A DNA stretch of 44,481 nt from Chiloscyllium plagiosum. Taxonomy: Eukaryota. Position 1 is the first letter of the stretch; each line of letters begins with the position of its first letter. Of the stretch, positions 1,217 through 44,481 are shown one piece after another. The translations under genes were made by a program, and so were the position numbers. The stretch covers positions 17,971,069-18,015,549 of the forward strand of contig NC_057749.1 in the NCBI RefSeq assembly GCF_004010195.1. The letters are read 5' to 3'. The notes below the pieces were generated by a model that was given only the letters and a program-made list of their open reading frames with translations, had not been told where the DNA came from and searched no databases.

Positions 1217-1313
1217 GTCAAGATTAGAGTGGTGCTGGAAAAGCACAGCAGGTCAGGCAGCATCCGAGGAGCAGGAAAATCGACATTTCAGGCAAAAGCC
1301 CTTCATCAGGAAT
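1217..1313 (-). mobile_element. Single-arm Penelope-like insert with hammerhead motif
   Basis: Minus strand: attc-CTGATGA-a-gggc-tttt-gcct-GAAA-t-GTC-gatt, followed by the family sequence gatgctgcctgacctgctgtgcttttccagc. It interrupts the LINE RT region. Confidence 0.8.
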
Positions 1314-3246: not shown

Positions 3247-4327
3247 GTTCAGCTAAATGTTTATGAGTGCCATCCTTGGATCCTAATGAGCTATATCCTT
3301 TCAAAGTTGCACTAATGATGTTGTATTAGCTTTGTTGAGAATGAGACACCCTGGTGAGTTTGTCCACAGACAGTGCTGTGAACTCCAGACACAATCAATT
3401 TCACTGGGTAATTAGGTTTCCCAGCTATTAATGATATCTGTTGTTAGCTTTGATTAGAGTGAGGACTGATGTAAGGAACAATGTGACTTTTTCTTGCCTT
3501 TTATTTTGAAGTGATTATTGATAATGAGCAGCAATAAAGCTGGACAGGCCCCTTTGAGATGGTTGCGAGATGAATTGTCAATTCCTGTTGTAAGAATCCT
3601 GAAACATTCAGAATAGAACTGAGCTGCGGGAACTGTTACTGATGTGTTCTGCAAAATGCAAGTATAATTCAACGCACAAACCTGTTGACCTAAAGCAGTG
3701 TCTAACTTCTCTGTTTAGGAATCAGTGACTGCGTGAGGCTCTGACAAGCTGACGAAAGGACTGAAGAAGCTGTTAACCGGTAGGAAAGAAACACTTCCTT
3801 CATTTAAGCATTTTCACATGGCTTGTTTCTTCGTAACACTTACAGGTTTTGAAAGGTTTATGACCAAGGTGGAGGAATGAGGTTTCCATTTGCTGCAGTG
3901 GTCACTTTGGGGTGTTCTTCTGCATCTTTTTAACAGTGTTCAAGATGAGAAGGTGGGATCCGTAGAAAAGAAAGATTAATGGAAAGCAAGCTTCCAATTG
4001 ACCTTTTTACCTTCCTACTATAGACCCATTTACCTCACACCTGCCTCTCCCAATATTATCCCCATCGACAAAAACTCAGTGACAAGTCAAACCTTACAGC
4101 GTGGTGAATCCAATACTGAAAAAAGGGAGGAAGAGTCTGGAGGGAGAGGGGGTTTGGGATGGTGTTTGTGTGTTCAGAGCAGCTACATCGGTGGAAGTAG
4201 TTATTGGCCAACGTCAAGTTTGCATTTTTGCAAACCAACCACCAGGGGAAGCAAATTAGTGACGACCGGAGATGGGACATTGAACTGAAGAGGTTCCAGA
4301 ACAACCAAGAGACTGAGAGCAAAAGCC

Positions 4328-4602
4328 AAAAAACAGACAACCCAGAATGAACTGTGGATGCTGTGAATCAGGGAAGGTAAACAGAAGTTGCTGGAAAAGC
4401 TCAGCAGGTCTGGCAGCATCTGTAAAGAGAAATCAGAGTTAACGTTTCAGGTCCTGGTTCTGAGGAAGGTTCTCCAGACCCGAAACATTAACTCTGATTT
4501 CTCTCCGAAGATGCTGCCAGACCTGCTGAGCTTTTCCAGAAACTTCTGTTTACCTTCCCGGATTCACAGCATCCACAGTTCATTCTGGGTCGTCTGTTTT
4601 TT
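4328..4602 (+). mobile_element. Penelope-like fold-back element (~125-bp inverted arms) with central hammerhead
   Basis: aaaaaacagacaacccagaatgaactgtggatgctgtgaatc... mirrors ...gattcacagcatccacagttcattctgggtcgtctgtttttt. Centre: gtt-CTGAGGA-a-ggttc-tcca-gaccc-GAAAC-ATT-aac (4457-4492). Confidence 0.85.
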
Positions 4603-14789: not shown

Positions 14790-15880
14790 TTAGTTTTTTT
14801 TATTCATAGGATGTGGATGTCACTGGCTGGGCCAGCATTTATTGCCTGTCCCTAGTTGCTCTTGACTGTCTTCTTGTACCACTGCAGACCCTGTTCTGAA
14901 GGTAGTCCATGCTGTTAGAGAGGGAGTTCCAGGGTTTTGACCCAGTGACAGTGAACGAACAGCGATATATTTCCAAGTCAGGATGGGGAGGGGCTTGGAG
15001 GGGACCTTGCAGGGGGTGATGTTCCCATGTACCTGCTGCCCTTGTCCATGAGGCAGTAGATGTTGCAGGTTTGGAGGGTGCTGTTGGAGGAGCCAACAGT
15101 GCATCTTGTGACGGTACACGCTGCTGTGACTGAATACCAATCGTGAAGGGAGTGAATGTTGAAGGTGCTGGATGTGGTACCAATCAAGCGGCTGCTTTGT
15201 CCTGGATGGTGTCGAACTTCTTGAGTGTTGTTGGAGCTGCCCCCATCCAGAATCACATTCCTGACTTGTGCCTTGGAGATTTGCGGACAGGCTTTGAGGT
15301 GTCAGGAGATGAGTTACTTGCTGCAGGATTCCTAGTCTCTGACCTGTTCTTGTAGCTGTTGTGTTTATGTGGTGAGTCCAGTTAAGTTTCTGGTCAACAG
15401 TTACTCCTGGGTGTTGCTAATGCCTGGGAGGGGGTTCAGTGATGGCAAAACCATTGAATGCCAAAGGACAAAGGTTAGATTCTCTTTTGAAGAAGATGGT
15501 CATAGCCTGGCATTTGTGTTGTGAATGTTACTTGTCCAGATCTTGCTGCATTTGGACACGGGCTGCTTCAGTATCTGAGGAGTGGTGAACAGTGCTGACC
15601 ATTGTGTAATCATCAGTGAACATCCCCACTTCTGACCTTATAATGGAAGGAAGGTCATTGTTGAAACAACTGAAGATGGTTGGGCCTAGGACACTCTCCT
15701 GAGGAACTCCTGCAGAGGTGTCCTGGAGCTGAGGTGACTGACCCTCCAACAACCACCACCATCTTCCTCTGTCTGTGTCAGGTCTGACTCCTCCCAGCAG
15801 AGAGTTTTCCCACTGATTCCCATCGATTCCAGTTTTGCGAGGACTCCCTGATGTCAAGGGCAGTCACTCATCTTAACCTC
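14790..15880 (-). mobile_element. CR1/L2-group LINE (second family) 3' portion
   Basis: SAGVPQESVLGPTIFSCFNNDLPSIIRSEVGMFTDDYT; GSKPWNSL; A-rich tail. Homologous to 1075-2690. Confidence 0.9.
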
Positions 15881-16261
15881 CATCACAGTCACTGTAACGC
15901 TGTAAGCAGTATGGGAGACAGCTTTACACAGCAAGATCCCATGGACAATAATGGGATAATGACCAATCATTTGTTTTTGAAAAATAAAAAAAATAGCTAT
16001 TGACTCAGGACCCAGGTTGGGAGTGCCAATGGGTGGAGAGCATCTTGCATTTTATTTAGATCATGTCATATTTTTTTCCAATGGCAAAACATTGCATTTC
16101 TGTCGTGTCTTTAATACAGTAAGATACCCCAATATGCCTCACAGGGTCATTATCAAACATATTCTGACACTTTGCAATAAAAGGAGAAATTGGCTGTGAT
16201 GACCCAAGCCATAGGCAACCATGATGGTTCGACACAGTATCCGAAAAGCGGGATAGAGAGG

Positions 16262-18255
16262 TCAGAGAGTCATACAGCATGGAAACAGATCCCTTGATCC
16301 CCAGTCCACATTGACCATAATCCCAAATTAAACTATTCCACCTGCTTATTCCTGGACGCTATCCTTCCAAACCTTTCCCATTCATGCACATACCCACATG
16401 TTTTGTAAATGTTGCAGATGCCCCTGCATCCACCACTTCCTCTGGCAGTTCATTCCACGTATGAAACCACTCCCTGTGTTAAAAACATTGCCCCTCATGT
16501 CTGTTTCAAATCGTCCTCCGCTCATCTTACAAAAGGTGTCCTCTAGTTATAAACTACCCAACTCGGGGGGTGGGGGGGGGGGGGGGGAAAGACCTTTACC
16601 ATTCACTTTATCTTTGCCCCTTATGATTTTATAAACCTCAATAAGGTCACCCCTCAGCCTCCTACACTCCAGTGAAAGGTTTCCAATCTTTCCAGTTTAT
16701 TTTTATAACTTAAACCCTCCATTCCTGGCAACATCCTGGGAAACCCTCTCCAGTTTAATAATATCCTTTCTATAATAGTGACACCAGAACGGTTCCAGAA
16801 GAGGCCTCACCAATGCCTTGTCAACATAACGCCAATGCCTATGTTCAAAGGTCTGAGCAATAGAGACAAACTTGCTGAGCACCTCCTTAACTACTCTGTC
16901 TACATGTGACACACATTTCAAAGAATTATGTAGCTGAACTCCTAGATCTACAACACTACCCAGGCCCCTACCTTTAATTGTATAAGCCCCACTGTTGGTT
17001 GTTGTACCAAAATGCAATACCTCACATTTATCCAAATTAAACTCCATCTTCCATTCCTCAGCCCGTTGACCCAATTGATCAAGATCCCATTGTAACCTTA
17101 GATAGCTTTCTTCACTGTCCACTACACCACCGATATTGGTGTCGTTCCCAAACTTACTAACCACGCCTCCTAAATTCTCATCCAAATCATTTATATAAAT
17201 GACAAACAAAAGTGGACCAAGTACCGATTCCTGTGGTCACTGGCCTCCAGTCTGAAAAATAACCCTTCACCATCATTCTCTGTCTCCTGCTGTTAAACCA
17301 ATTCTGTATCCAATTAACAAGCTCACCCAGAATCCCACGTGACCCAACTTTTTTGATTAGTCTACCGTGCAGCACCTAGTCACAGCCCAAGTTACAATGT
17401 CCACCACTGATCTTAACAATCTTTTTGGTTACTTTCTCAAAAATCTCATTCAGGTTTGTGAGACATGATCTCCCTCGTACAAAGCCATACTGACTATCCC
17501 TAATTAGTTCTTGCCTCTCCAAATGAATGTAAATGCTATCTTTCAGAATCACCTCCAACACCATACCCACCGTTGAATTCTGACCCATAGCTCTACAGTT
17601 CCCAGGTTTCTCCTTCCAGCCTTTCTTAAATAAATGCACCACATTAAGCACCCTCCAGTTCTCCGGTCTTTCACCCTTGTTTATAGATGGTACACATATT
17701 TCTGCAAGGGGCCCGACAATGTCCTCCCACAACATCCTGGGATACACTAGATCAGGTCCCAGAGATTTATTCACCTTTATATTTTCTAAAACCTTCAATA
17801 ATTCCTCTTCTGTAATGTGAATTGTTTTCAAAACATGGATATTTATTTCCCAGGGTTCTCTAGCCTCCATTTCTTTCTCCACAGTAAAAACTGATGCAAA
17901 ATATTCATTTAATATCTCTCCCATCACCTGAGGTTCAAGGCAAAGACAACCTCTTTGATCTTTAAGGGGTCCTACTCTCTCTCTTGGTCTCTTGCTCTGA
18001 ATGTACTTGTAGAATTTCTTTGGATTATCCTTAACATTATTTGCCAAGACTATCTTGTATCCCCTCTTTACCCTCCTGATCCCCCTTTTAAAAGTGCCCC
18101 TTACACTCTTTATTCTCTTCAAGAGATTCATTTGAACCCAGTTGTCTGTGTCCTATGTGTGATTCTTTTTTATTCTTCACTAGAACCTAAATAACTTTAT
18201 TCAGCCAAGATTTAGAGAATGCTCTCTAATCCCACCTTTCACTCTAACAGGAACA
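16262..18255 (-). mobile_element. CR1 LINE, ~2 kb 5'-truncated, frameshifted ORF2
   Basis: NPKKFYKYI, KSLGPD, PGNCR, QYGFVRGRSCLTNL, FVIYINDLD, SKFGNDT; tail agagtcatacagcatggaaacag. Confidence 0.95.
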
Positions 18256-27268: not shown

Positions 27269-27528
27269 GTTAAAAAATCACACAAAACCACGTTATAGTC
27301 CAACAGGTTTAATTGGAAGCACTAGCTTTCGGAGCGTCACTCCTTCACCAGGTGGTAGTGGAGGACACTATTGTAAGACACACAATCATGTCCTCCACAA
27401 CCACCTGATGAAGGAGCGACGCTCCGAAAGCTAGTGCTTCCAATTAAACCTGTTGGACTATAACGTGGTTTTGTGTGATTTTTAACATTGTCCACCCCAG
27501 TCCAACACCGGCATCTCCAAATTATGAC
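27269..27528 (+). mobile_element. Penelope-like fold-back element inserted in the L1 inter-ORF spacer
   Basis: ~97-bp inverted arms (27269-27366 / 27390-27486) plus a 42-bp tail; approximate TSD tacagaaa(a)gaa at 27257-27268 and 27529-27539. Confidence 0.9.
27402..27436 (+). ncRNA. Minimal type I hammerhead ribozyme motif
   Basis: cac-CTGATGA-a-ggagc-gac-gctcc-GAAA-gc-TA-gtg. Core intact, 5-bp stem II, palindromic AGCT stem III, cac/gtg stem I. Confidence 0.75.
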
Positions 27529-28799: not shown

Positions 28800-30270
28800 A
28801 TCATACAGTCATTGAGTCATCGAGATGTACAACACGGAAACAGACCCTTCTGTTCAACCCATCCATGCCAACCAGATATCCAAAATTAATCTAGTCCCAT
28901 CTGCCAGCACTTGGTCCATATCCCTCCAAACCCCTCCTATTCATATACCCATCCAAATGCCTCTTAAATGTTGCAATTGTACCAGCCTCCACCACTTCCT
29001 CTCACAGCTCATATCATACCCGTACCACGCTCTGTGTGAAAAGGTTGTCCTTTAGGCTTCTTTTATATCTTTCCCCTCTCACCCTAAAACTATGCCCTCT
29101 ACTTCTGGACTGCCCTACCCCAGGGAAAAGATCTTGTCTATTTACCCTATCCATGTCCCTCAGGAGTTTATAAACCTCTATAAGGTCACCCCTCAGCCTC
29201 TGACGCTCCAGGGAAAATAGCCCCAGCCTATTCAGCCTCTCCCTGTAGCTCAAACCCTGGCAACATCCTTGTAAATCTTTTCTGAACCCTTTCAACTTTC
29301 AGATCATCCTTCCGATAGGAAAGAGACCAGAAATGCACATAATATTCCAACAGTGGCCTAACCAACTTCCTGTACAGCTGCAACATGACCTCCCAACTCC
29401 TGTACTGAATGTTTCTGACCAGTAAAGGAAAGCATACCAAACGTCTTCACTATCCTATCTACCTGCGACTCCACTTTCAAGGAGCTAGGAACCTGCACTC
29501 CAAGGTCTATCTGTTCAGCAACACTCCCTAGGACCTTACCATTAAGTGTATAAGGACCATCTGATTCAGATCCTGTTGTAATCTGAGGTAACCTTCTTTG
29601 CTGTCCACTACTCCTCCAATTTTGGTGTCATCTGCAAACTTACTAACTGTACCGCTTATGCTCGCATCCAAATCATTTATATAAATGATGAAAAGCAGTG
29701 GACCCAGCACCGATCCTTGTGGCACACCACTGGCCACAGGTCTCCAGTCTGAAAAACAACCTCCACCACCACCCTCTATCTTCTACCTTTGAGCCAGTTC
29801 TATATCGAAATGGATGGTTCTCCCTGTATTCCGTGAGATCTAACCTTGCTAACCAGTCTCCCATGGGGAACCTTGTCGAACGCCTTACTGAAGTCCATAT
29901 AGATCACACCTACTGCTCTGCCCTCATCAATCCTCTTTATTACTTCTTCAAAAAACTCAATCAAGTTTGTAAGACATGATTTCCCACGCACAAAGGCATG
30001 TTGACTATCCCTAATCGGTCCTTGCCTTTCCAATTACATGTACATCCTGTCCCTCAGGATTCCCTCCAACAACCACCACCAAGTCAGGCTCACCGGTCTA
30101 TAGTTTCCATGGATTGTCCTTACCACCTTCTTAAACAGTGGCACCATGTTAACTACCAGTCTTCTGGCACCTCACCTGCGACTATCGATGATACAAATAT
30201 CTCAGTAAAGGGCCCAGCAATCACTAGATTCCCACAGAGTTCTAAGGTGCACCTGATCAGGTCCGGGGGA
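28800..30270 (-). mobile_element. Younger HER1-like CR1 nested in the host CR1
   Basis: New 3' tail at 28800-28850; [41 protein letters not shown]. Confidence 0.92.
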
Positions 30271-30913: not shown

Positions 30914-32080
30914 TTTATATAAATGATTTGGATGTGAGTATAAGAGGTATAGTTAGTAAGTTTGCAGATGACACCAAAATTGGAGGTGTAGTGAACAGCA
31001 AAGAAGGTTACCTCACATTACAACAGGATCTTGACCAGATGGGCCAATGGACTGAGAAGTGGCAGGTGGAGTTTAATTCAGATAAATGCGAGGTGCTGCA
31101 TTTTGGAAAAGCAAATCTTAGCAGGACTTATACACTTAATGGTAAGGTTCTGGGGAGTGTTGCTGAACAAAGAGACCTTGGAGTGCAGGTTCACAGCTCC
31201 TTGAAAGTGGAGTCGCAAGTAGATAGGATAGTGAAGAAGGTGTTTGGTATGCTTTCCTTTATTGGTCAGGAGTTGGGAGGTCATGTTGCGGCTGTACAGG
31301 ACATTGGTTAGGCCACTGTTGGAATATTGCGTGCAATTCTGGTCTCCTTCCTATTGGAAAGATGTTGGGAAGCTTGAAAGGGTTCAGAAAAGATTTACAT
31401 GGACGTTGTCAGGGTTGGGAGATTTGAGCTATAGGGAGAGGCTGAACAGGCTGGGGCTGTTTTCCCTGGAGCGTCGGAGGCTGGCTGAGGGGTGACCTTA
31501 TAGAGGTTTATAAAATCATGAGGAGCATGGATAGGGTAAATAGATAAGATATTTTCTCTGGGGTCAGGGAGTCCAGCACTAGAGGGCGTAGGCTTAGGGT
31601 GAGAGAAGAAAGATATATGCAGAGGGTGGTAAATGTATGGAATGAGCTGCCAGAGGATGTGGTGAATGCTGGTACAATGCTTAAAAATGTGTTGCTGGAA
31701 AAGCACAGAAGGTCAGGCAGCATCTAAGGAACAGGAGAATCGACGTTTTGGGCATAAGCCCTTCTTCAGGAATCCCTGAAGAAGGGCTTATGCCCAAAAT
31801 GTCGATTGTCCTGTTCCTTTGATGCTGCCTGACCTTCTGCGCTTTTCCAGCAACATATTTTTAAGCTCTGATCTCCAGCATCTGCAGTCCTCACTTTCTC
31901 CCAGTGCTGGTACAATTGCAACATTTAAGAGGCATTTGGATGGGTATATGAATAGGAAGGGTTTGGAGGGAAATGGGCCAGGTGCTGGCAGGTGGGACTA
32001 GATTGGGTTGGGATCTCTGGTCAGTGTGGACAGGTTGGACCGAAGGGTCTGTTTCTGTGCTGTACATCTCTATGACTCTT
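30914..32080 (+). mobile_element. HER1-like CR1 3' portion, interrupted by a Penelope-like element
   Basis: [21 protein letters not shown], tail ctctatgactc. Confidence 0.93.
31679..31904 (+). mobile_element. Penelope-like fold-back element with 12-bp TSD
   Basis: Arms 31679-31770 / 31775-31866 plus tail; TSD tgctggtacaat at 31667-31678 and 31905-31916; core CTGAAGA-a-gggc-ttat-gccc-AAAA (mutated). Confidence 0.92.
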
Positions 32081-32851: not shown

Positions 32852-33490
32852 GCACAGGCCCTTTACTGAGAGTCTCCCAACAATGATGGAATCTGAATAA
32901 ATACACTCAGGATACAGCACATCCCCCTGCTGTCTCAGTCAGTCCCTTGCTGGCCAATATTTTATTGCCCGATGATCTCTCCTACCCAGACTCTCTGTCT
33001 CTCTTCCATTACTGCCAACTGTGTCATTAATAAAGCTGAGAACCCAGAAAGGAAATCAATTGTATCCTGTTTTCTCAGCATCAAATCTCCGCACTGCCCT
33101 GCCTGATTAGCAAAGACTGCTCGCAAATGTGGCTGGGACCAAGCGAATCAATAATCTATAAATAATACCCACAATTACAAAGGATCTAGTGCATTGTCTG
33201 TCTCCCATTCTTTGGAAATTGATGATGAGTAATGTCCTCACCTAAATCTGATGTCAAGGAATGTCTACACTTCAGACTGGGATTATACTCCTTGGGATGT
33301 CAAAGAATGGAGGGGAGATCTTACAGAATCATACACAATTCTGAAGGGAATCGATAGGATAGGTGCGGGGCGGGGCGGGGGGGGGATTGTTTCCACTGGT
33401 GGATGAAATTAGAACCAGAGGACATCACCTCAAAATAAAGGGGGAGCAGCTTTCGGACTGAGTTGAGGAAGAACGTCTTCAGCATTGGAA

Positions 33491-33650
33491 AGTGTGGCAC
33501 TGGAAACGCACAGCAGGAATTCCTGATGAGGGGCTTATCCCCGAAACGTCGATCCTCCTGCTCCTCGGATGCTGCCTGACCTGCTGAGCTTTTCCAGCAC
33601 CACACTCTCGACTCTGGCTCTCCAGGATCTGCAGCCCTCACTTTACCCTG
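33491..33650 (+). mobile_element. Penelope-like insert with truncated left arm
   Basis: gtgtggcactggaaacgcacagcagg mirrors cctgctgagcttttccagcaccacac; family tail atctgcagccctcacttt. Confidence 0.8.
33515..33556 (+). ncRNA. Minimal hammerhead ribozyme motif, canonical core
   Basis: tc-CTGATGA-GGGG-cttat-CCCC-GAAAC-GTC-ga; GUC cleavage triplet ends at 33550; stem I is weak or bulged. Confidence 0.75.
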
Positions 33651-42097: not shown

Positions 42098-43635
42098 GAG
42101 TTATAGTCATACAGTGTGGAAAATGACCCTTTGGCTCAACTAGTCCATACTGACCATGTCCCCAAACCAAGCTAGTCCCACTTGCCTGTGCTTGGCCCAT
42201 ATCCCTCTAAACCTTTCCTATTCATGAATGTATCCAAATGTTTTTACATTTTGTAACTGTACCTGTATCCACTACTCCATCTAGAAGCTCATTCCACACA
42301 TAAATCATTCTCTGTGTAAAAGAATTGCCCATCATGTCCTTATTAAATCTTTCACCTTTCACTTTTGCTTTGAATACCCCTTTCCCAGGGAAAAGACACT
42401 TGCTATTCACCCTATCCATGCCCCTCATGGTTTTATAAATCTCTATAAGGTCACCCCTCACCTCCGACGCTCCAGGGGAAAATGTCCCAGCCTATCCAGC
42501 CTATCTTTCTAATTCAGCACCTCCAGTCCCAGGAACATCCTGCTAAATCTCTTCTGAACCCTCTCCAATTTAATAATATCCTTGCTGTATCTGGGAGACC
42601 AGAACTGTAGACAGTATTCCAGAAGAGGCCTCACTAACATCCCGTACAAACATCCCAGCTCTTATACCCAAAGCTCTGAGCAGTGAAGGTAAGCGTGCTA
42701 AATACCTTCTCAACCACCCTGCCTACATGTGACACAAATTCCAAAGAATTATATCTCTGAACCCCTAGATCTCCCTGTTGTACAGCACAGCCAGGGCCCT
42801 ACCATTCATGGTATAAGCCCTGCCCTCATTTCTCTTACCAAAATGCAATACGCCACATTTATCCAAATTAAACTCCTCAACCCATTGACCCAGTTGATAA
42901 AGATTTCTTTGTAACCTTAGATCGTTTTCTTCACTGTCCACTATGCCACCAATTTTGATGTCATTCACAATCTTACTAACCACGCCTCCAATATTCACAT
43001 CCAAATCATTTATATAAATGACAAACAAATGAGGACCCAGAATTGATCCCTGCGGAATACTGCTGGTTACAGGCCTCCGCCACCACCCTCTGTCTCCTGA
43101 CATTATGTCAATTTTGTATCCAACTGGCAAGCCCACCATGTGATAGAACTTTCCTAATTGGTCCACTATGGGGAACCTTGTAAAAGGCTTTACTAAAGTC
43201 CACGTCGACAACATCTACCGCTCTGCCCTCATCAATGTTTTTGGTTACTTCCTCAAAAAGCTCAGTCAGGTTTGAGAGGCACGATCTCCCTCACACAAAA
43301 CCATATTGACTCTCCCTCATCAATTCTTGCCTTTCCAATAACTTACCCACCACTGGCATCAGGTTCACTGGTCTATAGTTGCCAGGTTTCTCTTCCCAGC
43401 CTTTCTTAAATAAAGGCACAACATCAGCCACCCTCCAGTCATCTGGTACCTCACCTGTGGTTATTGATGATACAAATTGTTTTGCTAAGAGCCCCATAAT
43501 GTGCTCCCTAACCTCTCAGACTGTCCTGGGATACACCTGATCAGGTCCTGGAGATTTACCCACCTTCATGTTTTCTAAGACCCCCATCACTTGCTGTTCT
43601 GTAATGTCAACTGCTCTCAAAACATCAATATTTAA
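42098..43635 (-). mobile_element. CR1 LINE 3' 1.5 kb
   Basis: DWRVADVVPLFKKG...PGNYRPVNL, SIPQGSILGP, RGDLIEIYK. Confidence 0.93.
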
Positions 43636-43646
43636 TTGAAACAAAA

Positions 43647-43934
43647 ACAGAGTTAATGTTTCAGGTCCAGTGACCTTTCCTCAGAACCGGACCCGAAACA
43701 TTAACTCTGTTTCTCTCTCCACAGATGGTGCCAGACCAGCTGAGCTTTTCTGTCCTTGTTTCTGATTTCCAGCATCCGCAGTTAGAGTCATAGAGTCATA
43801 GAGATGTACAGCATGGAAACAGACCCTTCGGTCCAACAAACATTAACTCTGTTTCTCTCTCCACAGATGGTGCCAGACCAGCTGAGCTTTTCCAGCAACC
43901 TCTGTCCTTGTTTCTGATTTCCAGCATCCGCAGT
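43647..43934 (+). mobile_element. Penelope-like element with short fold-back, partly tandem-duplicated
   Basis: Minus gtt-CTGAGGA-a-aggtc-actg-gacct-GAAAC-ATT-aac (43652-43687); same subfamily as 4328-4602. Confidence 0.8.
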
Positions 43935-44030
43935 TAGAGTCATAGAGTCATAGAGATGTACAGCATGGAAACAGACCCTTCGGTCCAACCCATCCATGCC
44001 GACCAGATATCCCAACCTAATCTAGTCCCA

Positions 44031-44385
44031 TAAATAAAAGCAAATTACTGCGGATGCTGGAATCTGAAACCAAAAGAGAAAATGCTGGAAAAATCTCAAC
44101 AGGTCTGGCAGCATCTGTAAGGAGAGAAAAAGCTGATGTTTCGAGTCTAATTGACCCTTTGTCAAAGCCTTTGGTTTCAGATCCCAGCATCTGCAGTATT
44201 TTGCTTTTATCCAGTGTTTAACCCACTGCCCTCTCTCTCCCAGGAAGACTACCCTGAAGAAGGACTGCTCTTCTCTCCGACAGCTTTGACAAAGGGTCAG
44301 TTAGACTCGAAACGTCAGCTCTTTTCTCTCCTTACAGATGCTGCCAGACTTGCTGAGATTTTCCAGCATTTTCCCTTTTGGTTCC
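44031..44385. mobile_element. Rearranged Penelope-like fold-back element with 12-bp TSD
   Basis: TSD aatctagtccca at 44019-44030 and 44386-44397; ~44068-44168 is inverted at ~44283-44383, and ~44034-44074 is inverted at ~44171-44210. Confidence 0.88.
44282..44320 (+). ncRNA. Minimal hammerhead ribozyme, U3-A8 core variant
   Basis: agct-TTGACAA-a-gggtc-agtta-gactc-GAAAC-GTC-agct; stems I and II pair, and stem III is the palindrome ACGT. Confidence 0.72.
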
Positions 44386-44481
44386 AATCTAGTCCCACCT
44401 GCCAGCACCCGGCCCATATCCCTCCAAACCCTTCCTTTTCATATACCCATCCAAATGCCTCTTAAATGTTGCAATTGTACC

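Follow-up and report, generated by a model that had tools for sequence, protein, structure and literature searches.

A minimal hammerhead motif with a U3-A8 core pair at the start of a Penelope-like terminal repeat in Chiloscyllium plagiosum

Terminal repeats of Penelope-like elements (PLEs) carry minimal hammerhead motifs (min-HHRs), which according to Cervera & de la Pena 2014 (PMC4209133) have no helix III/loop and a short helix I and are expected to act as dimers. The same paper lists a conserved G10.1-C11.1 pair, a palindromic 15.2-16.2, many solo copies, pairs on opposite strands and, as a recurrent trait, an unpaired nucleotide after A9. For vertebrates, it describes min-HHRs in the elements Xena, Poseidon and Neptune of fish, coelacanth and amphibians, with a canonical core.

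In the active hammerhead, C3 and G8 form a Watson-Crick pair. Natural covariation of this pair to U3-A8 was reported by Perreault et al. 2011 (PMC3088659), where the exchange is stated to be proven active in vitro, citing Przybilski & Hammann 2007. Within PLEs, U3-A8 covariation has been described for the Cercyon elements of Schistosoma mansoni, and a U3-A8 descriptor retrieved about 1,300 matches (PMC4209133).

We analyzed a stretch of 44,481 nucleotides from the genome of Chiloscyllium plagiosum (contig NC_057749.1), hereafter called the window. A preliminary description of this stretch had proposed a hammerhead with a U3-A8 core at 44282-44320, and every part it named was found at its coordinates. 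By sequence inspection, the motif reads AGCU/UUGACAA/A/GGGUC-AGUUA-GACUC/GAAAC/GUC/AGCU and is composed of the following parts.

44282-44285, plus strand: helix I 5′ strand AGCT, at the same time bases 1-4 of the PLE terminal repeat (pLTR)
44286-44292, plus strand: catalytic core TTGACAA (UUGACAA), with U3 at 44286 and A8 at 44291 replacing C3 and G8
44293, plus strand: unpaired A between A9 and G10.1
44294-44298, plus strand: helix II 5′ strand GGGTC, pairing with GACTC at 44304-44308
44299-44303, plus strand: helix II loop AGTTA
44304-44308, plus strand: helix II 3′ strand GACTC, giving 5 bp that include G10.1-C11.1 and one G-U
44309-44316, plus strand: G12 A13 A14 A15.1 C15.2 G16.2 U16.1 C17, i.e., GAAACGTC, with the cut predicted after C17 (C44316)
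44317-44320, plus strand: helix I 3′ strand AGCT

All invariant core positions except 3 and 8 are intact, and the G10.1-C11.1 pair is G44294-C44308. Helix III consists of A15.1-C15.2/G16.2-U16.1 only, which form the palindrome ACGU at 44312-44315 without a loop, and the motif therefore cannot close as a monomer. This loopless helix and the unpaired A44293 were missing from the preliminary description. The motif is not a chance occurrence, as the 19-nt pattern AGCTYTGACRAAGGGTCAG has 2,661 matches in the genome compared to 0 for the reversed control, and the 16-nt 3′ part of the motif occurs three times in the window where 0.15 matches are expected. The structural traits of a min-HHR are all present, i.e., the core boxes, A15.1-U16.1, an H17 that is not G, the unpaired A, G10.1-C11.1 and a loopless palindromic helix III. 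Its location in PLE terminal repeats follows from the full-length relative L076 described below.

In its overall type, the motif resembles the Schistosoma Cercyon min-HHRs: both are minimal type-I hammerheads without helix III/loop, reside in PLE terminal repeats, occur as solo and opposite-strand copies and show U3-A8. The host differs, being a CpG-depleted genome of 3.56 Gb here and a trematode there, and helix II has 5 bp compared to the 7-8 bp reported for Schistosoma. Moreover, the family studied here is nearly uniform, with about 98% U3-A8, whereas the Schistosoma matches are described as highly heterogeneous. With Xena, Poseidon and Neptune, the motif shares the vertebrate terminal-repeat setting and the architecture, but not the canonical core described for them in the 2014 paper. 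The hammerheads of Perreault et al. 2011 contain the same compensated pair, but are full versions with three closed or stable helices. Newt satellite and viroid RNAs are comparable (Forster et al. 1988): with their short helix III a monomer cannot act, and two units form a double hammerhead via a palindrome; these RNAs, however, keep a small helix III loop and loop-loop tertiary contacts, both of which our motif lacks. Non-LTR retrozymes of animals (Cervera & de la Pena 2020; Li et al. 2026) are also short non-coding hammerhead repeats from PLE terminal repeats; they form head-to-tail tandems with a hammerhead in each unit, from which circular RNAs arise, and have been reported in one cartilaginous fish (Li et al. 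2026 preprint). Among our copies, the window's internally deleted derivative of 208 nt and those of 1.0-1.6 units resemble such repeats, but the hammerheads of retrozymes are of the classical type I and possess a helix III, which is absent from our motif. Long tandem arrays were not seen among the copies examined.

The U3-A8 pair at the center of the preliminary description is thus a known variant, as it was printed in 2011 for natural hammerheads (PMC3088659) and in 2014 for Schistosoma PLE min-HHRs (PMC4209133). A U3-A8 min-HHR in a vertebrate PLE was not found in the literature searched, which included text of the 2014 paper.

The preliminary description had further expected CTGANGA-based searches to miss the motif. 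Rfam indeed misses it: no hammerhead model matched at the gathering score in the whole window, nor at E values of up to 10 around the site. The cause is a different one, however, since a relative with a canonical core at 33517-33556 also remained without a match to any of the five models (type I, II, III, HH9, HH10). Thus, the absence of helix III accounts for the miss, and not U3-A8. Standard annotation thereby overlooks a very abundant class of motifs, of which one family alone, family A (see below), has at least 70,858 exact 16-mers.

A search of the C. plagiosum genome returned 47 matches to the repeat at 93-100% identity, and 41 copies were aligned. Most of the aligned copies begin exactly at (AC)AGCT, with unrelated flank upstream, and they end near CTCTTTTGG(TT) or 36 nt further at ...GCTTTTAT. 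Longer copies have 12-14 bp of target-site duplication and the invariable 3′ terminus TTTTGG; their 5′ ends vary, with 5′ truncation and an attached inverted fragment, and they include partial tandems of the 208-nt unit (1.0-1.6 units) and the 36-nt tail. Other copies hold an internal sequence of variable length between ...CCGACAG and the next AGCT. By following the internal sequence of longer copies we arrived at a PLE. In one copy (L060), this sequence codes for a protein fragment with at least 150 scored genome relatives among 44,370 first-look candidates, and several of these are found at a distance of 1-1.7 kb from the repeats, with which they share the orientation.

In the full-length relative L076, the motif starts at 504 and at 3740, the first base of each of two direct repeats. 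Between the repeats, a match to RVT_1 (31.9 bits, cut-off 29.6) is followed by a weak match to Pfam GIY-YIG (14.7 bits). The translation displays YIDD, a CX4CXXC linker and then the C-terminal motif VYCIRC..CG.IYIGET. L076 therefore shows the arrangement of a canonical EN+ PLE, a reverse transcriptase followed by a C-terminal GIY-YIG domain in a single frame, and the CX4CXXC linker is typical, according to Craig et al. 2021, of Neptune and Nematis. The element is flanked by a 12-bp target-site duplication, TTTGCTTATGTC. Its PLE reading frame, which is broken in the PLE copies examined, runs in sense on the same strand as the hammerhead. A Pfam GIY-YIG search of the genome gave one match, which was irrelevant. 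An origin of the repeat as a LINE or SINE tail was rejected, because the internal region of the family codes for a PLE protein; the LINE frame near 31,000 only contains an insertion of another min-HHR family.

As described by Craig et al. 2021 and also by Frangieh et al. 2024, PLE insertions carry partial tandems that give pseudo-LTRs, are truncated on the 5′ side, include a 5′ copy in inverse orientation and have at one end a tail of 30-40 bp. The relatives show this signature, and so does the window at 44019-44397, where the insertion is organized as follows.

44019-44030, no strand: left target-site duplication AATCTAGTCCCA, with the same 12 nt at 44386-44397
44031-44169, minus strand: inverted copy, head-to-head with the plus-strand copy, as seen from the inverted repeats
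44034-44069, minus strand: 36-nt 3′ extension ('tail') of the inverted copy
44131-44169, minus strand: second hammerhead motif, within the inverted copy, GAAACAUC
44170-44385, plus strand: internally deleted PLE derivative of about one 208-nt unit, which starts and ends in TTTGG, with its 3′ end at TTTTGG(TT); relatives are built alike
44386-44397, no strand: right target-site duplication AATCTAGTCCCA; relatives have duplications of 12-14 bp

The insertion (44031-44385) is a dead, rearranged copy, made up of the inverted copy and one unit of the internally deleted derivative. The preliminary description had also noted TTGACAA in the inverted arm, and it is seen there at 44131-44169 on the minus strand; this arm keeps the core, yet it reads GAAACATC, with its CpG decayed. 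As the window motif lies within a head-to-head inverted repeat, a transcript of this copy would form a long hairpin and not a hammerhead. We regard it as nearly certain that the motif is the minimal, dimer-type hammerhead of a PLE. The terminal repeat of the element opens with these 39 nt, and the motif marks the element boundary at the exact first base of that repeat.

The genome harbors further min-HHR families. The window itself contains copies of three of them with a canonical C3-G8 core, at 33517-33556, 27399-27439 and 4454-4495 (all plus strand) and at 43649-43690 and about 1270-1310 (both minus strand). In family D and in the family at 27399-27439, the palindrome of helix III is AGCU instead of ACGU. 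Among 12 representatives of four families, the unpaired A after A9 is present in 11, and G10.1-C11.1 is a G-C pair in 10. Helices I, II and III covary among these families; 15.2-16.2, for example, is either C-G or G-C, and II.4 is found as U-A, C-G or G-C. Pairs were counted by parsing each motif, as the MAFFT alignment placed family D one column off. This covariation, read from the compared motifs, argues for a long-term structural constraint.

Family A is far larger than the U3-A8 family: its 16-mer TTCCTGATGAAGGGCT has 70,858 exact matches in the genome, so that the family comprises at least 70,858 copies and hammerhead-type motifs rank among the commonest short motifs of this genome. Its core states are C/G in 70,858, U/G in 2,345, C/A in 1,923 and U/A in 96 copies. 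The 96 doubles compare to 63.6 expected (odds ratio 1.5). Independent U3-A8 subfamilies within family A, hinted at by two copies of other families that carry U3/A8, were rejected, as the excess of doubles is small and of the kind that age heterogeneity produces.

The preliminary description had named a CTGACGA consensus, with independent decay of the window copy, as the finding that would speak against it, and had suggested counting TTGACAA copies against single mutants. Using the 19-nt context, 2,599 of the 2,661 genomic copies are U3/A8 (97.7%, by difference), 43 are C3/A8, 17 are U3/G8 and two are C3/G8. UUGACAA is therefore the family consensus, and U3-A8 is a state of the subfamily and not a private decay. 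When contigs from three organisms were placed on L076, no alternative letter reached 10% at position 3 or 8. The repeat family and its core state are thus common to at least three species labels.

The direction of change proposed earlier, from C-G to U-A, also holds. The sister families A, B and D of the same genome carry C3-G8, and an older relative that shares the first 19 nt (L031) has the core CTGACGA and reads AGCTCTGACGAAGGGTCAG. Starting from a C3-G8 ancestor, two transitions are needed, of which G8>A sits at a CpG. In the window, the observed/expected ratio of CpG is 0.26, in line with the CpG-depleted state of the 3.56-Gb genome. As a CpG change, G8>A is fast, which counts against the reading of a selected pair.

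In order to follow possible intermediates, we compared 20 C3/A8 copies (three of these rows were left out, as they held the neighboring arm), 17 U3/G8 copies and 20 pattern-sampled U3/A8 copies as a control. The median number of differences from the majority letters of the control was 5 for C3/A8, 5 for U3/G8 and 6 for the control itself, and no shared diagnostic variants were found. The single mutants are therefore late, scattered changes, and neither C3/A8 nor U3/G8 qualifies as an amplified intermediate subfamily. One of the C3/G8 copies, L032, was likewise rejected as ancestral: its five differences are all private, and it is indistinguishable from a double revertant, because about 0.27 such copies are expected by chance. 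The large and near-uniform U3-A8 family, together with its C3-G8 sisters in the same genome, offers a clean natural test of the 3-8 pair.

Two substitutions that hit both partners of the sole Watson-Crick pair of the core, while the other invariant positions are kept, are suggestive of compensation. In our preferred explanation, the double change was kept because the pair matters, so that RNA of the family master would still fold and cleave, slowly and as a dimer. Two RNA copies would pair via the ACGU palindrome to give a helix III of 4 bp and via AGCU/AGCU to give helix I; these copies could be tandem repeats of one transcript or two separate transcripts. In each active site, the core of one strand would cut the other strand after C17 (C44316), with U3-A8 taking the place of the C3-G8 pair in the active fold. 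We consider this account of the double change to have an even chance of being correct, and the same balance applies to the explanation as a whole, identity as a PLE min-HHR and function included. In a nearest-neighbor folding of the dimer, the window copy reached -15.3 kcal/mol in the double-hammerhead pairing compared to -21.8 kcal/mol for the minimum free energy structure, a gap of 6.5 kcal/mol; for three canonical copies of family A, the gap was 8-18 kcal/mol. As a separate observation, the minus strand of L124 (1-201) holds two motifs of the target family in the same orientation, 47 nt apart, a natural close tandem that, judging by its layout, could form a double hammerhead within one RNA.

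The folding brings in a further possibility. With C3-G8, CUGACG of the core can pair along its whole length with CGUCAG, which spans the cut (window 44286-44291 versus 44313-44318). For L032 with its natural C3-G8 (1501-1541), misfold and double hammerhead are 14.4 kcal/mol apart, compared to 6.5 kcal/mol for the U3-A8 window copy. According to this model, U3-A8 may also relieve a misfold. That the switch was adaptive twice, keeping the pair and at the same time breaking an inactive 6-bp CUGACG/CGUCAG trap, seems unlikely to us; if true, it would represent a natural experiment in how the ribozyme of a retrotransposon gets out of a misfold. In the same unlikely reading, the motif, at about 33 nt downstream of a TATA box (see below), would form the very 5′ end of the transcript, and its cleavage would remove a capped leader of 35 nt.

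The main rival is a relic that hitch-hikes with its element. Here, the min-HHR would be present by descent and its cleavage would not be needed for the spread of the family: G8>A would have arisen by CpG decay in the master, C3>U would have followed as a second neutral change that restored the pair by luck, and amplification would have proceeded regardless. Several results are in line with this course. No insertion end at GUC|AGCU was seen among the copies examined. The 5′ ends of insertions lie at AGCT, which precedes the predicted cut by 35 nt, or at scattered truncation points, and the 3′ ends lie at TTTTGG, which follows it by about 65 nt; we therefore rejected hammerhead cleavage as the event that sets insertion ends in these copies. 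The single mutants are scattered and late, without an amplified intermediate (medians of 5, 5 and 6 for C3/A8, U3/G8 and control), and the U3/A8 doubles of family A are near the neutral expectation (96 versus 63.6). In addition, PLE min-HHRs are reported to cleave poorly in vitro, even as dimers (PMC4209133), and PLE clades that have no hammerheads are reported to proliferate well (Craig et al. 2021), which indicates that hammerheads may be dispensable for PLEs. On the other hand, we estimate that a neutral second change would fall on the partner base, and with the pair-restoring letter, in only about 1-2% of cases among the 38 other positions. Moreover, the consensus keeps the remaining invariant core bases as well as helices I, II and III intact, and the helix covariation across families speaks for a structural constraint over long times. 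We regard a relic as a serious possibility, although a somewhat improbable one.

The preliminary description had taken the preserved pair to suggest selection for activity in the subfamily. This is not borne out: the uniformity of the copies is what descent from one master lineage produces and does not in itself reflect selection, and no insertion end coincides with the cut. With a single lineage and no cleavage footprint, a retained, selected function has about even odds. Comparison of the U3-A8 family with the C3-G8 families could show whether hammerheads are of any consequence to PLEs.

Another reading takes the 39 nt as DNA or RNA signals of the element and not as a catalyst. Candidates are a transcription-start region downstream of a TATA box and the palindromes AGCT, ACGT and CTTTG-A-CAAAG, through which two like-sense cDNAs could pair and give rise to head-to-head insertions. 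In both repeats of L076, TATAAATA is located 33 nt upstream of AGCT (L076:468-475 and L076:3703-3710); the window shows no counterpart upstream of 44282, because its copy is internally deleted. AGCT is the exact start in most of the 41 aligned copies, and the depth of contigs rises about tenfold at this point in three runs. Taken together, this suggests a TATA-driven transcript that has the first motif base as its start. The AGCT palindrome is the exact junction of several inverted pairs (L010, L008, L025 and L023), and U3 and A8 turn CUUUGACAAAG into a near-palindrome. However, such roles leave unexplained why the GAAA box, the pairing of helix II and the NUH triplet are kept across four families of differing sequence, and they could coexist with a ribozyme function. 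As an alternative to the ribozyme we consider them quite unlikely.

A chance resemblance to a hammerhead within an unrelated repeat, which could appeal to the missing Rfam match even at E values of up to 10, has a negligible probability and is already refuted by the full set of published min-HHR traits, the location in PLE terminal repeats, the homologous families with canonical cores and compensated helices, and the equal blindness of Rfam to a canonical-core relative.

Some further features were observed in and around the insertion. The motif lies between two pyrimidine tracts, TGCTCTTCTCTCCGACAG and CTCTTTTCTCTCCTTACAG (44264-44283 and 44321-44340), which both terminate in CAG and resemble 3′ splice acceptors; the first of them (44264-44283) is the point at which the internal sequence is deleted in several relatives. 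PLEs are described to keep introns near hammerheads (Cervera & de la Pena 2014, PMC4209133). A block at 44309-44368, which reaches 3′ of the motif (GATGCTGCC.GACCTGCTG.G.TTTTCCAGCA), is common to the older families of the window at 80-87%. Its sequence conservation is above that of the hammerhead 5′ half, and it ends near the constant 3′ end of the insertions.

Elsewhere in the window, a head-to-head pair of family A min-HHRs at 31690-31880, both with G12 decayed to A, is inserted in the C-terminal coding part of a LINE-type reverse transcriptase frame (30907 to about 32000). Degraded reverse transcriptase fragments at 15528-18152, 29528-30033 and 42765-43214 (all minus strand) have RVT_1 matches below the cut-off or LINE-like translations. 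Finally, two foldbacks at 33480-33616 and 44047-44197 gave weak, sub-threshold matches to plant and animal microRNA-precursor models of Rfam, e.g., MIR2871 with 29 bits (gathering 99) and MIR1033 with 23 bits (gathering 70). These matches reflect long hairpins and not microRNA genes.
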